This document shows positions 27,550 to 60,927 of a stretch of DNA of 64,000 bases, piece by piece. The notes beneath the pieces were generated by a model that worked only from the letters and a program-made list of their open reading frames with translations, was not told the origin of the DNA and did no database searches. The translations under genes were made by a program, and so were the position numbers. Numbering within the stretch: position 1 is the stretch's first letter; the number at the start of each line of letters is the position of its first letter. Origin of the DNA: Mytilus edulis (taxonomy: Eukaryota); contig NC_092346.1 in the NCBI RefSeq assembly GCF_963676685.1, forward strand, positions 26,226,001-26,290,000. Direction: 5' to 3'.

Positions 27550-30500
27550 ATGTCTGCGGGTAGAAAGTCAAAACCGAGTGCTTCGCAAGAGGATTCTACT
27601 CCAGCAAAGAAGCAATGCATGGACTTGCTTTTTCATGATGACTCTTCTGTTTCCAAGTTCACGTGGCCAGAAGATGGAAGTGAGTCATCATCATGGCAAA
27701 TTTGTGATGCGGATGCAGGGGATAACTCTAATCCACCAAGCCGTGATGCCACAAATCCACCGAGTCGGGGTAACTCAAATCCACCAAGTTTAGAATCTAC
27801 AAAGACAAATAATTCTTTGAGTAGTGAAGCATTGGATAAAAAGAAATTGATTGAAGATGCATTCGAACAGAATTCTTCACAGTCGACTGCTCCGTTTGTA
27901 TTCCCAAAAACTCCAGCAAATTCTGAAAATGATCTTTCATCACCTAGCACATTTAGCACATCAGGAGAAAGTAACTGTTCTTCACCAAGCACACTAACTT
28001 ACAAAAGCACAAAACAATCCAACAAAAGATTGTGTTCTCCTTGCAGAACACCAAATAATTCTGAAAACGATATTTCATCAACGGGCATATGTAGCGCATC
28101 ATCAAAAAATAATCGTTCCCCACCAATCACAGTCAGTAGCAAAAACACAGACCAATCCGACAGTAGATCGTGTTCTCCTTGCAAAACACCACAAAATTCT
28201 GAAAATGATTTCTCTTCAGCCAGCTCATGTAGCACATCAGCAGTAAGTGATTGTTCTTCACAAAGCACAGTCACTGAAAGTAATTTCTCATCAAGCACAA
28301 CTTTTGAATGTGATTCTTCGCCATCAAACACAAGTATTGCAAGTAGTCAACTTTCTGACAGCACTATCTCACAGAACTCTCAGGATGGCTTGTCTGAAGG
28401 CATACAATCTAAAAAATCTGTCGGCTCGGAAAACAGACAAGTTCCAACTAAACAAACCCGCCTAACCGATTCAAGTGATAGTGATTCGTGTGAAAGTGAT
28501 TCATCCCTAGACCAAGAAATAAAAGCAACACCAAAAGGAAAAAGAAATAATCCTCCTGCAATAAAGGTACAGGATACAAAGGTTCCAGAAAAAATGCACG
28601 ATGACCACGACAAAGAAGAAACAAACATTTTTAAGAATGTGAAAGGTGACAAAACTAAAGAACAGAATCAATCAAAAGGCAAAGACGAAGATAAATTGAG
28701 TGATGACGAAGATGATGTCAGTAATTATTCCGATGAGGATTATTATTGTAATAGCTCTTATTCTGGTAGTGGTAGCGAATATGAAGTTTCGGATAAGTCT
28801 GTTCAATGTAATGGCATATCTCCTCTTCATATCAAGACAAAGGTCGATAGACAAGCGTTTGTAATGAAAATCATGAAAGCGTTCAAATGCAACTCTCTGT
28901 ATGACTCGTTCTGCTTTACTTTGCCTCGGTCAAAGGATGCAATTGACGGATACAATATGACGGTCAATGGATTACTTAGTTTGGCCGATCAGTGTAGGTT
29001 TGGTCTAATCGAGTCGACCTCGATGAACTTTCCAAGTAAAGAATCCATAGATTTCGCAGAAGGAGTTGTCGAAGATATGAGGAAGAGATATAAGGATTTG
29101 TGTCGAGAAGGAGAAAATAGTAACAGTGATTCCCACCATTCTTCAGAAGAAAGCACAAGTAGTATTCTGGAGAAGGAAGTTGACAATGATCTCCCCCATA
29201 ATATTATATTCATGGTTTCCGATGGAATCAAAGACATTGTGTCGACCTGGAGTGGACAATTCCAGGTTTCTACTAATCCAGTTACATATATTATGTCGCT
29301 CCGAATGTTCGATTATAAGCCTTCATTTTCAAACAATATTCGACCAGTTTTCGGTCAGAAACCTGATTTGACGGATGAATTGTGTAAAGATATAGTCAAT
29401 GAAATGGAAAAGTTCGAATGTTCGAGACAATTGCGATTGGATGTAGACTTCCGAACTTTTGAAAGTCTTACATTTTTCAAATGTTCCGAAAACGAAGCTT
29501 TGCTACTTATAAACGTTAAAAGTCCAGCTACATTTTGCCAAAGACTCGTAAATAGCAGCGCCATAGACAGAAACGATTGGCAACCAAGAGACAATTTTCT
29601 CCCTTTTGAGCATGGATGTTATCAGGATTACGTTTTGGTTCTAGGGGGCGTAGTCTCTGAACTTTCAAGTATAGCAGCACAGATAACTGTAGCATTTCCA
29701 AGCGTTAAAATTTTAAACAAAGATATAAACGAGTTTTTGCTCTATCATATCTCGGTAAATACCTCGGGGAAATATAGAAATTTAGAAACTAACGGCAGAC
29801 ACAGAAAATCAACAAATTTGTCTGTTGATCGTCGAAATAACATCATTGATGTTTTGGAAACAAATCATCTTCTTTCAAAAGACAAATGTGAAGAACTAAG
29901 AACAAATATAACAATAACAGAAATTAACTCCAGACTGGGTTCCGAATGTAATGGTTTTGATGGTACGGAATTCCATCCATGTTTCACTGATTACTTAAAC
30001 TATAAATGTTTAGATGTTAGTGAACTGGAGCATCAACTCTCAAGGAGATGTAATATTTCAGAGAAAATGGCTGATGCCAAACTTTTGGATTACAATCCTG
30101 ATTCCAATCCTGATTCCCAGAACATGAGCGTAGCAGAATACCTGGCTTCAAATTCAAATTCGAATTTTTATTATTCTTTCTGTAGCTCAGAAATTATTCC
30201 CAACGACACGTGGCATTGTAAAGTATGTGGCAAATGCAACCAAGAAAACGAATGGCACTGCCCAAAATGTGACAAATGTTCTAAAGCACAACCAGCATGC
30301 CAGCACTGTGGATATGCTGGATATACATATATAATTAAACCAGGCTCGGTGGATGAATCCATGGCGCCAAAATTTGATTGGAAAATCAACTTGAGTACGA
30401 CAGATGTTCCTGATTGGTCTGTTACTCTCGATCATTCGACCGAAAAAGCTTCCTTCAGCATGGACGATTTCATGCAGGATGAGTTTGGATTGATCGATCC

Positions 30501-30630
30501 TATGGCATTTTTGTTGGGTTCTGAGGCTAGAGGCGGCGGGAAAAGACAAGGTCGTCGACTACAAAAGTATGAGAAAAAGATTGAAGGAAATCCTAAAATG
30601 TTAGCGGCAGCAGGATGTATATTGCAATAA
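27550..30630 (+). CDS. Uncharacterised 1026-aa protein (paralogue 1): Ser-rich disordered N-terminus, predicted PH-like domain, Cys/His zinc cluster, C-terminal CaaX (CILQ)
   Basis: Uninterrupted 3081-nt ORF in very AT-rich DNA, with a splice acceptor just upstream of the ATG. It shows collinear similarity to the ORF at 58244-60927 over the C-terminal ~600 aa. Confidence 0.92.
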   Translation: MSAGRKSKPSASQEDSTPAKKQCMDLLFHDDSSVSKFTWPEDGSESSSWQICDADAGDNSNPPSRDATNPPSRGNSNPPSLESTKTNNSLSSEALDKKKLIEDAFEQNSSQSTAPFVFPKTPANSENDLSSPSTFSTSGESNCSSPSTLTYKSTKQSNKRLCSPCRTPNNSENDISSTGICSASSKNNRSPPITVSSKNTDQSDSRSCSPCKTPQNSENDFSSASSCSTSAVSDCSSQSTVTESNFSSSTTFECDSSPSNTSIASSQLSDSTISQNSQDGLSEGIQSKKSVGSENRQVPTKQTRLTDSSDSDSCESDSSLDQEIKATPKGKRNNPPAIKVQDTKVPEKMHDDHDKEETNIFKNVKGDKTKEQNQSKGKDEDKLSDDEDDVSNYSDEDYYCNSSYSGSGSEYEVSDKSVQCNGISPLHIKTKVDRQAFVMKIMKAFKCNSLYDSFCFTLPRSKDAIDGYNMTVNGLLSLADQCRFGLIESTSMNFPSKESIDFAEGVVEDMRKRYKDLCREGENSNSDSHHSSEESTSSILEKEVDNDLPHNIIFMVSDGIKDIVSTWSGQFQVSTNPVTYIMSLRMFDYKPSFSNNIRPVFGQKPDLTDELCKDIVNEMEKFECSRQLRLDVDFRTFESLTFFKCSENEALLLINVKSPATFCQRLVNSSAIDRNDWQPRDNFLPFEHGCYQDYVLVLGGVVSELSSIAAQITVAFPSVKILNKDINEFLLYHISVNTSGKYRNLETNGRHRKSTNLSVDRRNNIIDVLETNHLLSKDKCEELRTNITITEINSRLGSECNGFDGTEFHPCFTDYLNYKCLDVSELEHQLSRRCNISEKMADAKLLDYNPDSNPDSQNMSVAEYLASNSNSNFYYSFCSSEIIPNDTWHCKVCGKCNQENEWHCPKCDKCSKAQPACQHCGYAGYTYIIKPGSVDESMAPKFDWKINLSTTDVPDWSVTLDHSTEKASFSMDDFMQDEFGLIDPMAFLLGSEARGGGKRQGRRLQKYEKKIEGNPKMLAAAGCILQ

Positions 30631-30973: not shown

Positions 30974-32231
30974 TTAAACACACAATTGGTTTATGTTGCC
31001 TTTTATTCATACACATTTAATTCATGCTAACACAAAAATATGAGATGTGGTATGATTGCCAGTCATTGAAGACAACTATCACAAAAAACTAAAGGACGAG
31101 CATGTAAACAGATATATATTTATGTGCGGCCTTCAACTATGAGCAAAATCCGTACTGTAAACTAAGCTTAGCTATAAAATTAACACAACAGATAATAAAT
31201 CAATAAATGAAAATAATTTTGGCATACTAGTATAACAACTCCCACTTATAAGCCCATGGTAAAGACACATAATTAATGTCAATACAATTAAAATATAGGT
31301 CTTTGATTTGGTTATCCTTTTATGATATATTTTCGGGCACTCGACTTACATAGATCTGAATTTCAACTATAAATTGAAGTTAAGTGGTAGTGTTATTGAC
31401 AGTTAATCATGTTTGTGAGAGCTCAACTCGCTTGTATCCTTGGACAGTGGTGCAACATAATAACAACTGTAAAAATCAGTTGGAAAAGCTAACAAAAAAC
31501 TAAAAAAAATTTAACACCAATCAAAAAGTTCTCGCAGTTGCTGAAAGCTAATGAAATACGTATTTCTTCTTTTAAACAAACCATGGTATCGATCTCCGAC
31601 TTTCTTTCACGTCTTTGTTCTTTACTAGAATACTTTTTATGCCCCACCTTCGATAGTAGAGGGGCATCATGTTTTCTGGTCTGTGCGTCCGTTCGTCCGT
31701 CCGTCTGTTCGTTCGTCCGTCTGTTACACTTCAGGTTAAAGTTTTTGGTCAAGGTAGTTATTGATGAAGTTGAAGTCCAATCAACTTAAAACTTAGTATA
31801 CATATTCCCTTAGATAAGATCATTCTAATTGTAATGCCAAATTAGAGAATTTATTCCAATTTCACGGTCCAGAAAACATAGAAAATGATAGGGCGAGTGG
31901 GGCATCCGTGTACTGTGGACACATTCGTGTTTATTAATCAAAACGAATAAATCAGGGCTTGCTTCATACAAAATAATCAACTTAGATAAACCAAAATCTT
32001 GAATGAAAGATTGACAAAACATTCTTACTCTGAATCTGGTATCAAGATTGTTTTTATGTTTGATAGGCGTTTTTTCAAGAGACAGTCTGCATTCCAATGA
32101 GAACCATGTTCACATCGACTGGTTCCTTTTTTGTCACACATTCTCCACATATAAGACTTTTTAAAAGAGGAATTTGAAAGGAAAGTTCGAAGGAGTAAGA
32201 AAAATAATGGAAAAATTTAATATGTCAAATA

Positions 32232-32672
32232 GAATCATATTCAAAACAGTGTGGTCCTGGCCATTGATTGACGATCTGAATTATCCCATTGACTGGGACA
32301 GATTAGGTGAACGTTTGTCTGTAACGACCATTGCTCACTTCTTACTTATTATAGAATTTAGACTGTGGGGTCACCAAAGGTTCTTAACGCCTCTAATAAT
32401 AAAAGAATTCGAAAAATTATTCAGGAATAACCTTTATGTTTTGATTTATATTATTGATATAAATCAACACATTGTATTATTCCGGATTCGTTTTTCGAAT
32501 TGATTTATTTAGGTGTTGAGAACCTTTGGTGACCCCACAGATTCAGCGTCTTTAACAAGTACATAGTGAGCAGTGGTTGTTACCGACAAACGTTCACCTA
32601 ATCTGTCCCAGTCAATGGGGTAATTGAGGTCGTCAATCAATGGCCAGTACCACACTGTTTTGAATATGATTC
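32232..32672. mobile_element. Nested palindromic MITEs: outer TA-flanked element with ~110-bp arms, inner element at 32363-32540
   Basis: Outer: TA|GAATCATATTCAAAACAGTGTGG ... CCACACTGTTTTGAATATGATTC|TA. Inner: CTGTGGGGTCACCAAAGGTTCT ... AGAACCTTTGGTGACCCCACAG. Confidence 0.8.
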
Positions 32673-32930
32673 TAAAAGGAAACGTAAGTTTGATCAAATC
32701 GCTAGCAGTTCAAAAATATCAGTTCCAATCAAATTACAAAGAAGGCACAGAACCAATTCAAAGCAAAAGACAAGATATAAAAAAAATCCACACAAAATGC
32801 ATGTCAAGTCGCAATAAAATAAAGAAATGAGAGAAGAGAAAGCAGATAAAATGATTTAGGGAATAGTCCGAAATGATACATTAAGTATAAAGGTTGGACT
32901 AGGTTAACCGAGCATAAAACTATACAGAAA

Positions 32931-35900
32931 TATTATAACAATAATATTTGGAATTCGTATTGTTGTTTTATGTAGTATGTTGGTCTGCATAGTTAGTTGT
33001 TCTTTAAAGACCCAAACTCTCAACAGACGAATGACTCTGTGAGGGTTGGTCTTGGAATCTTTCCATGATGGGGGAAACTAGCTGGGAACAATGCCTTCGG
33101 TGGTGTACGGCATTGCTGCCGCTGTAAAGGCAGGCCGGGCGTTGTTGCCGATGTAGAGGCAGGCCGGGATCGACTGACACCTATAAGTTTCAAAATTCAA
33201 ACTTTTTTAATAAAATAAATAAAAACAAAAATAATACAAAACAGTTACAAACAACAATAAAGTAAAACAAATATTTTCAATTATTTCCCTAACAGAAAAC
33301 AATAAATATTTTGAATAAACTTCATTTATGATTACTATTTATTATCTTTATTTTAGTTAAACTTATTTAAAATATTTTACTTTAAATCTTAATACTTTTA
33401 AAATCATGACTTACCTATAAGTTTCAAAATTCAAACTTTGACGTCTCAAAGCAGAATTTCTACTTATATAGCAATCACTTAATGACTTTGGTACTAGTTT
33501 GTGCCCTATAGTTTATCAAAGTTAAATTATTGACGTAAGTTGACCATGTCAACCATTGTCCGAAGTTTATGACTTTTTTGTTCATTCTATACTTTCAAAC
33601 AAAGATTTAAGTAATATTTGTTCTATCAGAAAGTTATTTGACCAAAGAAAGTTAGTTTGACCAACGTGAAGTTTACTTGAACTAAAAACTGGACATGAAA
33701 ATTTATCCAATATGTATGTCAAATATCTGTCACAATACATCACTCTCCTTAGAAATTTTGGACTCCAAAATAAAATAAATAATAAAGAAAATTTTAAAGA
33801 AATTGTGTATTTTTATGTTTACTATATTAGTTTGAAAATGGATTTATAACTTTTAATTATTAGTGTAAGTAAATAATCAATATCCATTTTTAAACCTCAA
33901 AACAATATAGAAGACAAACAATTGAGTGATGAAAAAAACCAATGGATGCATAAACATACATCATTTACTTTTTGATTTTAAGCGGGGGAAAAAACTTGAA
34001 CTTAATTCTAATATTTTTCTTTTTTTTTTCTTTCTTTCTTTTTTTTTCATTATTTAGATTCCTTAATCATACTATTTAATTGGTGTTTTTATCTTTATTT
34101 GTTTTATAACTTAATTGATGTTATGATGATGAAATACTATTAAGTATTAATTTTAAATCGTTGTTCTTGAAAGTTTGTTACTCACATGCTTACAAATGAA
34201 CGTTAATTTTTACAGTTGATGAAATGTAATTAGAAATATATGCAAAGTGTTTAAACAAAATGTTGCAAAAATATATGAATTATGAAAAACTTAAATAATC
34301 TTAAACAGAATTTGATTTTGCTTTTATCAGTCTCTAAGTTACTGTCTTATCATTTTGATGGCGTTCCTACTCTTGAGGTAACCCATTTTGTCAATTGATT
34401 GTGGCGTCCCTGCTCCTGAGGTGACCCATGAGTATATTTTGTATGGCGTTCCTTCTTGTGAGGTAACCCATTATATCTATTAATTGTGGCGTCCCTGCTA
34501 TTCAGTTAGCCTGAGCATTATGCGTGCCTATATATGAATATATATTGAATTATTATAACTCTGTACCGGTATTATATTATTCAAAATGTACAGTAAACGG
34601 CAACAAGAATTTTACTAACTTGTTCCTAATAGGTAACTCACAAACAAGGATATTTACGTTATGTAACCCTTAATAAAGTGAACCTAATCTTAAAGACGAC
34701 TGATTGCAAATATTAATCTTGACATGCGTTTGAAATACAAACATTCAGTTCTAATTAACATCATTCTGAAAATGTTATTCAATGGATGATTTAAATGAAT
34801 AAAATTTTACAATACTTTATGAAAAACATAATTTTAAAACTTGTTTAGACAGTCTTTTAGAAAAGTTGTTCTTAAAATTTTAAGACATGAAACGCAATAC
34901 AATTTGTGAAATGAAAATGAACATTTTGTTTCATAGCTGAAAATTTTAAATTAAAATTTAGATTTTAGAAATAAGCTTTTGATGTACTCACAGTTTCATG
35001 AAAATATATGTTTACAATGAAAATACACAACAACATAAATTTAATATTATTGTCACTGATGTTGATAAAAGTTCTTCTCTTATAATAATATGTAACAGTT
35101 CTTCGATATTCAGCTGATGTCGTTGTTCAATGGTGTATTCTAATTATTCACAAATAAATCATTTACTGGAAATATATATAATTAAATAGTCCGAACGGTA
35201 CGAAAATAATGTTCAACTGTAAATATTCCGGTTCGAATTGTCGAAACACTGTCTTAGTTTCTGGCATGCTATTATGATAGGTGTCGATGTTTGGCGTCCA
35301 ACATTTATTAACGGGCCTCCACCAAATATTATAACAATAATTTATGGAATTCGTATTGTTGTTTTATGTAGTATGTTGGTCTGCATAGTTAGTTGTTCTT
35401 TAAAGACCCAAACTCTCAACAGACGAATGACTCTGTGAGGGTTGGTCTTGGAATCTTTCCATGATGGGGGAAACTAGCTGGGAACAATGCCTTCGGTGGT
35501 GTACGGCATTGCTGCCGCTGTAAAGGCAGGCCGGGCGTTGTTGCCGATGTAGAGGCAGGCCGGGATCGACTGACACCTATAAGTTTCAAAATTCAAACTT
35601 TTTTAATAAAATAAATAAAAACAAAAATAATACAAAACAGTTACAAACAACAATAAAGTAAAACAAATATTTTCAATTATTTCCCTAACAGAAAACAATA
35701 AATATTTTGAATAAACTTCATTTATGATTACTATTTATTATCTTTATTTTAGTTAAACTTATTTAAAATATTTTACTTTAAATCTTAATACTTTTAAAAT
35801 CATGACTTACCTATAAGTTTCAAAATTCAAACTTTGACGTCTCAAAGCAGAATTTCTACTTATATAGCAATCACTTAATGACTTTGGTACTAGTTTGTGC

Positions 35901-36133
35901 CCTATAGTTTATCAAAGTTAAATTATTGACGTAAGTTGACCATGTCAACCATTGTCCGAAGTTTATGACTTTTTTGTTCATTCTATACTTTCAAACAAAG
36001 ATTTAAGTAATATTTGTTCTATCAGAAAGTTATTTGACCAAAGAAAGTTAGTTTGACCAACGTGAAGTTTACTTGAACTAAAAACTGGACATGAAAATTT
36101 ATCCAATATGTATGTCAAATATCTGTCACAATA
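32931..36133 (-). mobile_element. Non-autonomous LTR retroelement, 3203 bp, with two 807-bp LTRs
   Basis: Direct repeats at 32931-33737 and 35327-36133 are identical by eye apart from two substitutions near their left ends. TSD GAAA at 32927-32930 and 36134-36137. PBS TGGTGGAGGCCCG on the minus strand at 35312-35324, and PPT-like AAGGAGAGTGA near 33740-33750. No gag or pol ORF. Confidence 0.88.
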
Positions 36134-36195
36134 GAAACGTGAAAGAAGACCAAAAAAGTGCGAGTGACAGATTATCTGTTTTTCTCAGTGTATTA

Positions 36196-36450: not shown

Positions 36451-37049
36451 GAAAATAGATATAGTAAATTATCAGTCGCTCTAAACAATGCGAAATTAAT
36501 TAGTTCATTCGCTGCGCTTCCTCGCCGAAACTAACGTTTACATAGGGCTAGAATCTGATATTTGTGCAGAAACCAGAAAATGTATACAATCAATATTGCC
36601 TTTTCAATATCAGAAACGAATTGACCCTATATTTCTGAGAGTCTCTGTTTGCCATGTTTGTAATTCGTGAATTGAATGTTTTAGCATGAATTAGGCCTCT
36701 GTTCTCCTCCTTAGAATGTGATCCGTTTTATCATTCTGTGATGTTTCAAATACAAGTATAACTTACTATATTGCATGGAAATGTTCGTTGTTGAAGACCA
36801 AATGTCAACCTTTTAATATTAAGATAATCTGTACAAAAAGGTTTGGCAGTTTGGGGTTTTCCTGCATGCCGCTTGCAATATTAAAATGCAGAGTGTTTGC
36901 CTGCTATCCTCCCTGAATATACCACTGTTGAATATCATTTTGATGTTTATAGAAGAAAGTTTACAAAACAGAAACGGTAACAAGAATGCACAAAAATTTG
37001 AGTTGACTTAAATTTGTAAAGCACAATGACGAAAAGAAAACCCAACGCA

Positions 37050-37320
37050 CAACAGAACACAGACCAATGTACAAAATTCTACACAACACTAAACAGCCCA
37101 AATTACAACAGTCCACACAACACTGACTATAAAGATCAACGTACAACAGTCCACACAAAACTACACAGATAAACTTACAAAAGTCGACACAACACTAAAC
37201 AGCCCAACTTACAAAAGTCCACACAACACTACAAAGATCAACCTACAACGGTTCATACAAGACTACACAGATAAACTTACAAAAGTCCACACAACACTAA
37301 ACAGATTAAATTACAACATA
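37050..37320. repeat. 34-bp CA-rich minisatellite, short array
   Basis: About 8 degenerate units of the type ACAGTCCACACAACACTACACAGATCAACTTAC(A/C). Confidence 0.85.
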
Positions 37321-57752: not shown

Positions 57753-60700
57753 ATGGATCCAGGCTTAGAAGAAAAAGGTAATAAATTAAAGATAAAAAAG
57801 GTAGAAACCAAAAAAGTACATTTTGGTTCATTTACGGTATATTTAGCCAAAGTGCTTCCTTCATAAAAAAAAATCTAATGAATAATCACATATAAAAACA
57901 TGAACAACAGCAAAAAAAAAAAAAAAATTGATTTACACTAGGTTACATATCAAAATAAGATCTGATATTGTCAATGTAAATTTACCCCAGAATAGAGGTC
58001 TCCTACGAACCTTTATTATAAACATTACCATAATATCTGTTCCAGTTGGAACAAATATAATAATGATAAGGTTTAATTATGGTCAAATGTGTAAAAATTA
58101 TAAATGCATAAAGAAGATTTTTTTTTCTGGACATAGGATAACTAGTTTACAACTGAATCAAAATCGAAAAAAAAATAATTCCACACCGTTTTACATTAAA
58201 ATTTCCTCTTTATTCATAAATCTTGAATTTTTACCTTTTTCAGGATCAAACAATAGTGCCGGTTCTGAAACACCTATGGATACAGCTGAAGGGTCAAGTG
58301 ACTCCAAAAGTCCTAAACGTAGTAAAAATGATAAGTTACTAGACTCTGACTCTAGCAGTCCATGGTCTGACTTTCCCAGCTTGAGTGACGATGATTCATC
58401 TGAGGAAGAAGACATTGAGGAAGGTGAACGCACAAGTCAGATTAAACTGGACAGATTGTTCTGGTATCTTTATTCTAGGTTATTGAAAGATAAAACATGT
58501 TTAAATGACATTTACACAGACCTTTTTGCTAATCCTGGACTTTATGACAAGTTTAAATTCATCAAGAAAATCATGAATGCTTGTGAGTTTGGACCAACCT
58601 TTGATACTTTTTGTTTTTCCCTGCCAAGGCCAGATAATATGGAGAACGATTTCAAAAGAGCTGTTCACAGCATGAAAGAGCTTCTAAAGAAGTGTCAAGA
58701 TGGGTCTGTTACAACAACTTGTATGAATTCTTTAGATTTTCCTTCGGAGTCATCCAAACAAATGGCGGAAAAATTATTGCAGAAGTTAAAGAAGAAACTT
58801 GAAAGAGAACCAGTTGAACAACCCAAACAAGATAAAGCTCTTCGTGAACAAACAAAGAAGGCTGAACAAATCCCAGATAAGGGGGTCAATGGTACTAAAA
58901 ATGATGATCAGGACACAAGTTTTAAAGAAAAAGCTTCCTCCAATGCATCAAATACAAGTAAAAAAGAAACCAGTTCCAAAAATAATACTAGTTGCAAGGA
59001 AGACAATACCAGTCTAAAGGCCGCAAATTCTCAGGATCAAGAAAAGAAGGTAAATGGTTCTAAAACAAATGCTGGTTCCTATTCTGAAAATGATGATCTA
59101 AAGGACACCAGTTCTAAAGAAAAAGCTACATCCAAAGCATCAAAAACTAGTAAAAAAGAAACCAGTTCCAAAAATAATACTAGTTCCAAGGAAGATAATG
59201 CCAGTCAAAAGGCCACCAGTTCTAAGGATCAAGATAAGCAGACACCAGATGATCCAGATGCAGAACATGATCAGAATGAGGAAAGCATAGACGAAAACCA
59301 GGAGGAGCACAATGATTCAGACTGGGATTATTATGGAGCTGAAGAGGAGTTTGATGAACTTACAGAGGATAAAAAAATAAATAAGATTCTTGCAAATAGC
59401 TTCCCACATAATATAATTTATTTGCTGTCGGATGGAAAAACAGATATTATACCATCTTGGTGTGGTCAGATACAGGTTCTTGTCAATCCTGTCAATAAAA
59501 TATTGTCATTTTTGATGTATGATTATGTACCATTGTATCCAGATGATATAAGAGGAGCGATATTAAATGGAATGTCAGCACCAGTTGTCCGTAGAAACAT
59601 TGCTAAGGAACTTGAGAAGTTTGAATGTTGCAGACTGTTAAGGATGGATGTTCCACTAAAAAGCTTGGAAGAATTGTTTGTAGTTCAGCCAAATGATAGG
59701 GAGTTCCTCATATTTTCAAAATTGACTCCTCCTGCAAAATTTTATCAGAGATATATCAGTGTCAGTTGCAGGGATCGAAATAATTGGAGTGAAAGGCAGC
59801 CATTTTTACCTTTTGAAGGTCATTCGTTTTCCGATTGTTCAAGAAAGTATATGCTCATTTTTGGTGGAGAAGTTTCAGAGATGTCAGACATCATGGCACA
59901 GATAATTGCATGTAGACCAGAACAAAAAATATGTACTGAACCAAAGGGAAAAATTACTATGGTGGATCTAATAGAAAAATTAAATGAAAATGGTGATCCA
60001 GAAAATTCCAGTGCAATTAACACTCACTCTAGAGAGGAGGAGACTGAGCATCAAAATATAGATGTTAATATAAGGCACAGGAACAATATATTGGACATGT
60101 TGATTAAGTACAAAATTATCAATGAAGATCAGGGTGAAAAAATTAAACAGAATGTGGATTTGAAACAAAAAAAGCCACAAAATAAGAAGATAAACAACTT
60201 TCTTGACAAGCTAGATCTTGACCCATGTTTGAAGGATTATGTCAATTTTGGATGTGAAGATGTCAGCAAATTGGAGAAGCACTTGACAAAAAAATTAGAA
60301 GCTGGAGAATATGGCCATGAAATGGAGAGCTTGATGTTGAAATATCCAGAAAGATACAACTTTGATGATATAACAGTTGCTGAATTCCTTAATGCAGAAA
60401 AAGAGGATAAAAGCTATAGGACTCTTTTTTATTCCTTTTGCAGGTCTGAACCAGAACAATGCGACTGCACATGGCACTGTAAGGTATGCAAGCAGTGCCA
60501 GGATTGGAGATCTTGGCATTGTTCCAACTGCAACAAATGTGCATATGGCATATCAAATTCCATATGTGAATATTGTGGCTATAAAAGTTCTGGAAAATTT
60601 ATTCTTCAGCCTGATTCATATCACACAGAAAAAATAGAAGCATATGAAGGAATGTATACTTGTAATAAAATAAAAGACCACTGGAATTTAAAGTTGTCCA

Positions 60701-60927
60701 TAGATGATGTCCCGGATTGGACAAAAGAGGTGAAAGTTGATGATGAAAGTTCAGGAGACTTCAAGCTAAAAGATTATATAAACAGGGATGACCTTGGAAT
60801 AGTTAACCTTTGGGCATTGGCTATAGGGTTGTCTGGTAGTGGTCCAAGGAGGCACATTGGTCGTTTCTTCACTGAGTATTTTAGATATCAAATTGCAGAA
60901 AATATTCCTCTGATTGTGTTACATTAA
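57753..60927 (+). CDS. Uncharacterised ~902-aa protein (paralogue 2): same conserved blocks and zinc cluster as 27550-30630, no CaaX
   Basis: join(57753-57777, 58244-60927). The micro-exon MDPGLEEK+G (acceptor TTTTCAG at 57721, donor AAG|GTAATA) splices in frame to TTTTTCAG|GATCA. The first ~105 aa of the listed ORF 57928-60927 are intronic read-through. Confidence 0.9.

Follow-up and report, generated by a model that had tools for sequence, protein, structure and literature searches.

How does a retrotransposon spread if it encodes no protein and lacks the canonical TG...CA ends? The question is raised by an element at positions 32931..36133 of a stretch of 64,000 nucleotides of Mytilus edulis DNA (contig NC_092346.1, positions 26,226,001 to 26,290,000 of the forward strand), which we call the window. 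The element is bounded by two long terminal repeats (LTRs) and ends in TATT...AATA. The explanation that best accounts for it as a whole, to which we assign a probability of roughly 0.8, is that it is a recent, non-coding copy with TATT...AATA ends, mobilised by a helper element and carrying LTRs renewed through a cycle in which the R region is split in two.

Structure of the element

The element reads on the minus strand, from TATTGTGACA to TGTTATAATA, with a 5' LTR at 35327-36133 and a 3' LTR at 32931-33737, each of 807 bp. An earlier note, made from the letters of this DNA alone, had claimed that the two LTRs differ at only two positions. Both differences can be located, at 32946 and 32948, and they fall in the last 18 nt of U5, a segment with a hypervariable tip (35327-35574 in the 5' LTR); the first 789 bp of the LTR contain none. 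The clean 4-bp target-site duplication (TSD) of the same note is present at both flanks: GAAA on the plus strand, or TTTC on the minus strand, at 36134-36137 upstream, and GAAA at 32927-32930 downstream. The 5' LTR is followed by TT and then, on the side of the primer-binding site (PBS), by TGGTGGAGGCCCG. The 3' LTR is preceded by AAGGAGAGTGATG (33738-33750), a polypurine tract (PPT) with its spacer, where a purine tract had been noted before.

The interior measures 1,589 bp (33738-35326; 27% GC) and includes a 67-nt internal duplicate at 34348-34414 and 34433-34499. Its description as non-coding holds: no stop-free stretch exceeds 53 aa in any of the six frames, a tblastn comparison with eight gag, pol and env proteins of the same genome gave nothing meaningful (one 10-aa match, E 0.85), and Rfam returned two matches, both far under the gathering score. 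With direct LTRs and a TSD, a tRNA PBS and a PPT, no coding capacity and dispersed copies, the element has the features of a non-autonomous LTR retrotransposon. It is not a canonical TG...CA element, as the TSDs fix its termini at TATT...AATA. Nor is it of the DIRS or tyrosine-recombinase type, which would have inverted or split repeats and no TSD, whereas here the LTRs are direct and the TSDs 4 bp long. A retrozyme would carry a hammerhead ribozyme, and no ribozyme family was found at E<=1 in Rfam.

Dispersed copies and their ends

We searched the 1.37-Gb assembly from which the window is taken. The LTR gave 62 matches (40 of 185 candidates scored), and the whole interior gave 11, at 85-100% identity (40 of 73 candidates scored). 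The 22-mer at the start of the LTR matched 98 times, 60 of them exactly, as against 9 matches for a control. The sequence is thus multi-copy and dispersed, rather than the single-copy local duplication that the earlier note had held up as its alternative.

Every LTR start displayed for the copies examined reads TATTGTGA(C/T)AGATA. Exact 4-bp TSDs abut TATT and AATA in six of nine paired satellite copies (TTTC, TAAC, GTAG, ATGG, TATA and TATT), the misses being C23 (1-nt offset), C10:7.80 and C13:26.29 (rearranged). Two solo LTRs have exact TSDs at the same ends (CAAT, CAAA). At 40 further LTR-start loci the end motif was found in nine, five of them with an exact TSD; among those that miss, three show little homology to the LTR. 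Copy C6:72.63 is also without a TSD. The TATT...AATA ends proposed for the window element are therefore shared by other copies, with 4-bp TSDs and without any shift to TG..CA boundaries.

Could the unusual ends instead reflect a plain local duplication, or the decay of TG...CA ends after insertion? One solo LTR does start TGTT, and a related family is TG...TA, as decay might produce. But dispersed copies with different TSDs all begin TATT, and a satellite copy whose 828-bp LTRs are identical already has TA ends, so that these are not the result of decay. We regard both possibilities as negligible.

Across copies, the differences between 5' and 3' LTRs concentrate in the U5 tip. Because this tip collects differences in other copies too, the two mismatches of the window copy probably do not measure its age; the claim that the element is very young stands, in that its LTR age is effectively zero (no mutation rate was applied). 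Two related observations concern the same tip. The LTR 3' tips at L043, L045, L052, L187 and L027 contain tandem remnants of an LTR end plus PBS, and in C13:27.71, 14 of the 15 columns that differ between the LTRs sit in the last ~50 nt. Together, such remnants and clustered differences suggest remodelling during reverse transcription.

Satellite copies are also rearranged in other ways. In C6:16.26, C10:7.80, C14:13.85 and C6:72.63 the 5' LTR is internally deleted (252, 216, 283 and ~51 bp) with both end motifs kept, and one of the four retains an exact TSD. Other copies form head-to-head or tail-to-tail inverted pairs (C13:26.29, C14:19.02, C6:93.40, C12:23.99). Between ~44.9 and 57.4 Mb of C11 (L074, L075, L172-L175, L180-L183, L189) there are dense, partly tandem mosaics of satellite, helper-like gag and LTR, LINE and DNA-polymerase-B (Polinton-like) fragments; this region resembles a PIWI-interacting RNA (piRNA) cluster.

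A candidate helper

On C11, pieces of the satellite are fused to gag fragments, and these led, by way of a gag search, to a Ty3/gypsy family with gag, pol and a third open reading frame (ORF3). Its ends, TATTGTAATAG...CACAATA, are again TATT...AATA. The earlier note had predicted that a helper accepting TA ends should exist elsewhere in the genome, and this family answers to the prediction: the LTR pairs of four copies are 100, 99.9, 100 and 99.8% identical, and three of the four have exact TSDs (CATG, TAAA and TTTC), the fourth being offset by 1 nt. Pfam domains for gag, protease, reverse transcriptase (RT) and RNase H, as well as integrase (IN), are found, in the order gag and then protease-RT-RNase H-IN; which frames are interrupted varies from one copy to another.

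ORF3 encodes 869 aa, in which we find a stretch resembling a signal peptide, a KSKR motif with a hydrophobic peptide after it, and a transmembrane segment. It has no Pfam or PDB sequence match of the fusion-protein kind. The best Foldseek matches of its structural model (mean pLDDT, a per-residue confidence score, of 57) are class I F proteins of respiratory syncytial virus (RSV) and paramyxoviruses (E 1e-10, TM 0.3-0.46). We therefore treat ORF3 as a predicted F-type envelope, on a model of moderate confidence. Its closest named homologs carry a Mytilus label.

Scoring of 113 of the 2,088 integrase candidates gave seven at 88-100% identity, and the next is at 58%. In trees built from elements of this genome alone (19 of 26 loci for RT, 25 of 26 for IN), these seven, the TA-ended helper lineage, form one clade (IN 100/98, RT 100/99) among relatives that are TG...CA or CA-ended.

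What connects this family with the satellite? The two share the end motif, TSD length, PBS, PPT core (AAGGAGAG / AAAGGGAGAG; the helper counterpart of the window's tract and spacer is AAAGGGAGAGCGAT) and LTR layout. Moreover, a 215-bp U3 block at satellite LTR positions 34-248 (35886-36100 in the window) is 92% identical to helper LTR positions 124-347. Younger satellite LTRs carry this block at 90-93%; in older ones, what lies upstream of the TATA box is unrelated. The segment thus appears to have been captured from the helper, plausibly as an enhancer. At locus L119, satellite U3, R1 and intron pass into helper intron, R2, U5, PBS and gag, and then return to a satellite end, PBS and interior; in the C11 mosaics, helper-like gag is joined to satellite interior. 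Template switches of the L119 type would imply that the two RNAs are co-packaged. From these comparisons, copying and integration of the satellite are likely carried out in trans by an env-carrying Ty3/gypsy (errantivirus-like) helper of the same genome, and we hold the relation between the two to be highly probable.

It is important to ask whether the satellite might be moved mainly by a different autonomous element, either a coding parent with a TATTGTGACAG LTR or a TG...CA relative that tolerates TA ends, the shared U3 block then reflecting occasional recombination. The interior and most of the satellite LTR are unrelated to the helper found, the genome holds many Gypsy families with an Ala PBS, 4-bp TSDs and near-identical LTR pairs, only part of the candidates were scored, and one haploid assembly can miss elements. 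Yet no gag-pol bounded by satellite LTRs occurs at 40 LTR-start loci, 20 PBS-junction loci or one such junction in the window; among the resolved families, only the one described here combines TA at both ends with a short repeat and ATTAAA before its second copy; and the chimeras involve this same family. We consider a different main helper unlikely.

Other leads to a helper were followed and set aside. A PBS-junction pattern gave 16 matches; of nine followed, eight were unrelated to the satellite LTR and none had an LTR pair, and these nine look like variants of another common repeat. A looser pattern matched 45 times (control 21), and the 20 new loci and the one in the window yielded no helper and one DIRS element (L153, C3:25.93 Mb), whose frames encode RT, RNase H, a methyltransferase-like protein and a tyrosine recombinase. 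A 12-mer pattern stayed at control level (412 versus 352). Where ORFs of Gypsy, LINE, BEL-gag or host type lie close to LTR-start matches, they are neighbours and not parts of the satellite. The Gypsy beside solo LTR L127 bears its own TG...CA LTRs (L127/L184, C11:79.15-79.17 Mb; 213 bp and identical), and it carries two other ORFs, one for a TatD DNase following pol and one with a helix-hairpin-helix preceding gag. The integrase ORF past the C9:4.44 copy is distant from the helper, and so is the RT fragment at C9:4.49.

The primer

The PBS of the window element, TGGTGGAGG-CCCG at 35312-35324, begins 2 nt (TT) past the LTR. The complement of the 3' end of tRNA-Ala(AGC) plus CCA is TGGTGGAGGACCCGGGCA; that tRNA end has 100 matches in the genome, and ARAGORN called tRNA-Ala(AGC) at both of the loci tested. 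The window PBS pairs with it over 9 nt, followed by a 1-nt bulge and CCCG. Thus the earlier assignment to an Ala-type tRNA holds and can probably be narrowed to the AGC isoacceptor, but the contiguous 10-nt match does not.

Most satellite relatives share the bulged site, and the exact 18-nt complement is present in satellite copies C14:19.35 and C13:26.29 and in the C7 helper copy. A length of 18 nt is that of the tRNA primer copied in retroviral plus-strand strong-stop synthesis. The exact copies are therefore good evidence of reverse transcription from tRNA-Ala(AGC), and a mixture of bulged and exact sites is what we would expect of a PBS renewed by copying of the primer. We conclude that tRNA-Ala(AGC) is the likely primer and reject tRNA-Ala(TGC/CGC), whose match to the PBS extends over only 8 nt.

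In the helper (L232, L216, L234, L172) the PBS overlaps an ATG just before gag (TA ATG GTG GAG GAC). Two of the copies have only a mismatched PBS-like motif, and one has the exact 18-mer in tandem with that motif. The tRNA genes themselves occur in large tandem arrays: Ala(AGC) is found together with Asp, in units of 1,370 bp, at C11:65.26-65.43 Mb, and Ala(TGC/CGC) together with Glu at C2:86.17-86.21 Mb.

Origin of the TA...TA termini

The sister of the TA-ended clade and the other resolved relatives end in CA, save for one family elsewhere in the IN tree (L321/L322, C11:82.59 Mb), a Gypsy relative whose ends are asymmetric, TG...TA, and whose TSD is CTAT. Since the clade sits among CA-ended relatives, TA...TA is likely a derived state, and the TA ends likely arose from TG...CA in one lineage. 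The ends themselves fit both a 3-nt outward shift (TAT-TG...CA-ATA) and substitution of TG and CA by TA. We lean towards substitution, because the sister family ends GTCACAACA and one solo LTR starts TGTTGTGAC.

A repeat within the LTR

The satellite LTR contains a perfect 27-nt repeat, at LTR positions 299 and 533. In the 5' LTR of the window the first copy, R1 (35809-35835; 33413-33439 in the 3' LTR), starts 31 nt past a putative TATA box, TATATAA (35860-35866), and ends at a donor-like AG|GTAAGT. The second, R2 (35575-35601; 33179-33205 in the 3' LTR), follows ATTAAA (35602-35607). Between them we predict an intron of 234 nt, GT...AG (35577-35810), which some copies of the family lack; the predicted transcription start lies at the 5' end of R1, and R2 would supply both the RNA 3' end and the acceptor AG.

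The repeat is kept in satellite LTRs that are only ~84% alike. A scan of 68 LTR starts showed two copies in 33, a single copy in 10, three in one and none in 24 (many of these last being fragments); LTRs in which a single repeat leads straight to U5 occur at four satellite loci and also in the helper. The helper LTR has a 28-nt repeat of its own in the same layout, and eight related families have repeats of 54-70 nt, 0.4-1.4 kb apart. A repeat of 27-70 nt, near-perfect (with one mismatch in two cases), is found in 10 of 15 families, as against at most 17 nt in shuffled sequence. All ten have a donor-like GT(A/G/T)(A/T)G after the first copy, an AG at the end of the second, and A(A/T)TAAA inside the repeat or 5-9 nt before its second copy; five have a TATA-like motif 27-32 nt upstream. 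Five families are without a repeat: two have gag-pol in a single ORF and LTRs of 0.8-1.0 kb, one is represented by a partial LTR, and two are controls with short LTRs.

We propose the following cycle. RNA polymerase II would start at R1, ~30 nt behind the TATA box, and in the 5' LTR R1 would be spliced to U5. In the 3' LTR the RNA would be cleaved within R2, just after ATTAAA and ahead of the acceptor AG; because cleavage precedes the acceptor, the intron would stay in the 3' LTR. Helper Gag would co-package the satellite RNA, and tRNA-Ala(AGC) would prime its reverse transcription. Strong-stop DNA, consisting of U5 and R1, would then jump to R2 at the RNA 3' end, and U3-R1-intron-R2-U5 would be rebuilt. 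Each cycle would copy R1 over R2, so that the two copies would be identical within a family and different between families, and a jump to R1 instead would lose the intron. Finally, the helper integrase would trim the short spacers and join at ...AATA-3', giving the 4-bp TSD. Judged from DNA only, a split R that regenerates an LTR intron seems to us a good deal better than an even bet.

The available RNA reads can be set beside this scheme. In unstranded run X24, molecule ends pile up at 35570-35590, and depth is 42-48 in U5 against 4-5 in the adjoining intron bin. The pattern would fit a spliced leader, but the reads stem from divergent relatives, with 1 of 285 reaching >=95% identity. In stranded runs X21-X23, first mates lie on the satellite sense strand, and in X23 the same is true of the helper; these reads are mostly <95% alike and have no strand control. 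First mates on the sense strand would, in the usual library, mean antisense RNA. Contigs of X4, whose RNA origin is a guess, have very high depth over the shared U3 block.

Alternatively, the link between satellite and helper may be right and the internal repeat an ordinary duplication or insertion scar, such as an enhancer duplication or a long TSD, without any role in splicing. LTRs often hold tandem repeats, some copies persist with a single repeat, and the reads, which carry another species label, show neither start nor splice nor poly(A) site. On the other hand, the repeat recurs in ten families whose repeat sequences are otherwise dissimilar, near-perfect across 0.2-1.4 kb and always in the same arrangement of donor, hexamer and AG, and it is missing from the two single-ORF gag-pol families with LTRs of 0.8-1.0 kb. 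We find an ordinary duplication doubtful, although less so than a different main helper.

Other features of the window

Two paralogous stop-free frames of ~1,000 aa on the plus strand (27550-30630 and 57904-60927) flank the element. They have no Pfam match, are 32% identical over 532 aa and are Cys/His-rich in their C-terminal part. A MITE-like element (miniature inverted-repeat transposable element) with 126-nt terminal inverted repeats (90%) lies at 32230-32674, ~250 bp from the 3' LTR, and a tandem array of 34-nt units at 37020-37316.

Discussion

Several observations weigh against the explanation we prefer. The satellite and helper interiors have no detectable nucleotide or protein similarity, and their LTRs match in the U3 block only, so that the satellite is not a simple deletion derivative of the helper. 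The main helper could be another TA-ended family, beyond the 113 of 2,088 integrase candidates scored. The RT and IN trees include no reference errantivirus, and the IN support for the sister group (94/99) is under the threshold of the tool. TSDs are inexact in three of nine paired satellite copies and one of four helper copies, two of these by a 1-nt offset. As for the repeat, a strict TATA motif is missing from five of the ten families, single-repeat LTRs could also arise by simple recombination between repeats, and the RNA reads come from another species label, are mostly <95% alike and cannot distinguish a spliced R1-U5 from R2-U5.

What the analysis adds to the earlier note is the envelope-like gene of the helper, the U3 block captured from it, and the LTR internal repeat with its predicted intron. 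In its widest form, the proposal is that a bivalve errantivirus-like clade and its satellite use a split-R LTR in which an intron survives indefinitely, and that one lineage switched to TA...TA ends and gained an enhancer-capturing satellite, possibly travelling in its enveloped particles. That all of this is both true and undescribed we think only slightly more probable than the contrary. In the literature searched, whose coverage leaves out most subscription papers and Repbase entries, we found no description of TATT/AATA ends, of an LTR intron or of a duplicated R.

Introns are normally purged from LTR elements by reverse transcription. If the proposal is true, a split R lets an intron outlast this process, with the R copies re-homogenised every cycle. 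Since the boundaries of the repeat allow one to predict, from the DNA alone, where transcription starts and where splicing occurs, the idea is directly testable. One genome holds a CA-ended sister, a TG...TA relative and TA...TA members, and thus offers a natural system for a shift in integrase end recognition from CA to TA; the satellite and helper likewise offer one for a non-coding satellite that parasitises an env-carrying element of an invertebrate. Annotation by the TG..CA motif overlooks both of them.

How does this system compare with those already known? Mouse VL30 and the plant elements known as LARDs (large retrotransposon derivatives) and TRIMs (terminal-repeat retrotransposons in miniature) keep a PBS and PPT around a non-coding interior, are moved in trans and recombine with their helpers. 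The satellite is probably similar in mode, and differs in its invertebrate host, errantivirus-like helper, TA ends and proposed split-R LTR with an intron.

F-type env-carrying Gypsy elements (ENV_F errantiviruses) are listed for bivalves (PMC13524379). As described there, mollusc errantiviruses resemble our helper in gag-pol-env order, in long LTRs and a tRNA PBS, and in the envelope, for which an F type with a furin-like site and a fusion peptide is predicted in the helper; the window element, unlike them, encodes nothing. A term search of the main text of that study turned up nothing on non-autonomous elements, on target sites, on LTR ends or on splicing.

Ends other than TG...CA have precedents. 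Insect errantiviruses of the Zam clade are described as having LTR ends of the form AGTTA...TAAYT (PMC3601003); both they and the present elements are Ty3/gypsy without TG...CA, the ends here being TATT...AATA in one lineage nested among canonical relatives. In plants, TA...TA is reported on transposition-competent LTR retrotransposons, and TG...TA and other intermediates occur (PMC9804982). These plant elements are, in that account, mostly Copia with short LTRs, whereas ours belong to an animal Gypsy/env lineage with 4-bp TSDs. It follows that the remark that standard LTR finders would miss such an element applies to searches by the TG..CA motif only, TATA ends being a recognised non-canonical class (PMC9804982), and that TA...TA ends alone are of modest novelty.

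The nearest parallel to the proposed splicing is the foamy virus LTR, in which the major splice donor lies within R and upstream of the poly(A) signal, and can shield the 5' LTR from premature polyadenylation (PMC3694450). The abstract of that work describes neither a duplicated R nor a complete LTR intron; in the elements considered here, the LTR contains all four predicted parts: donor, intron, poly(A) hexamer and acceptor.

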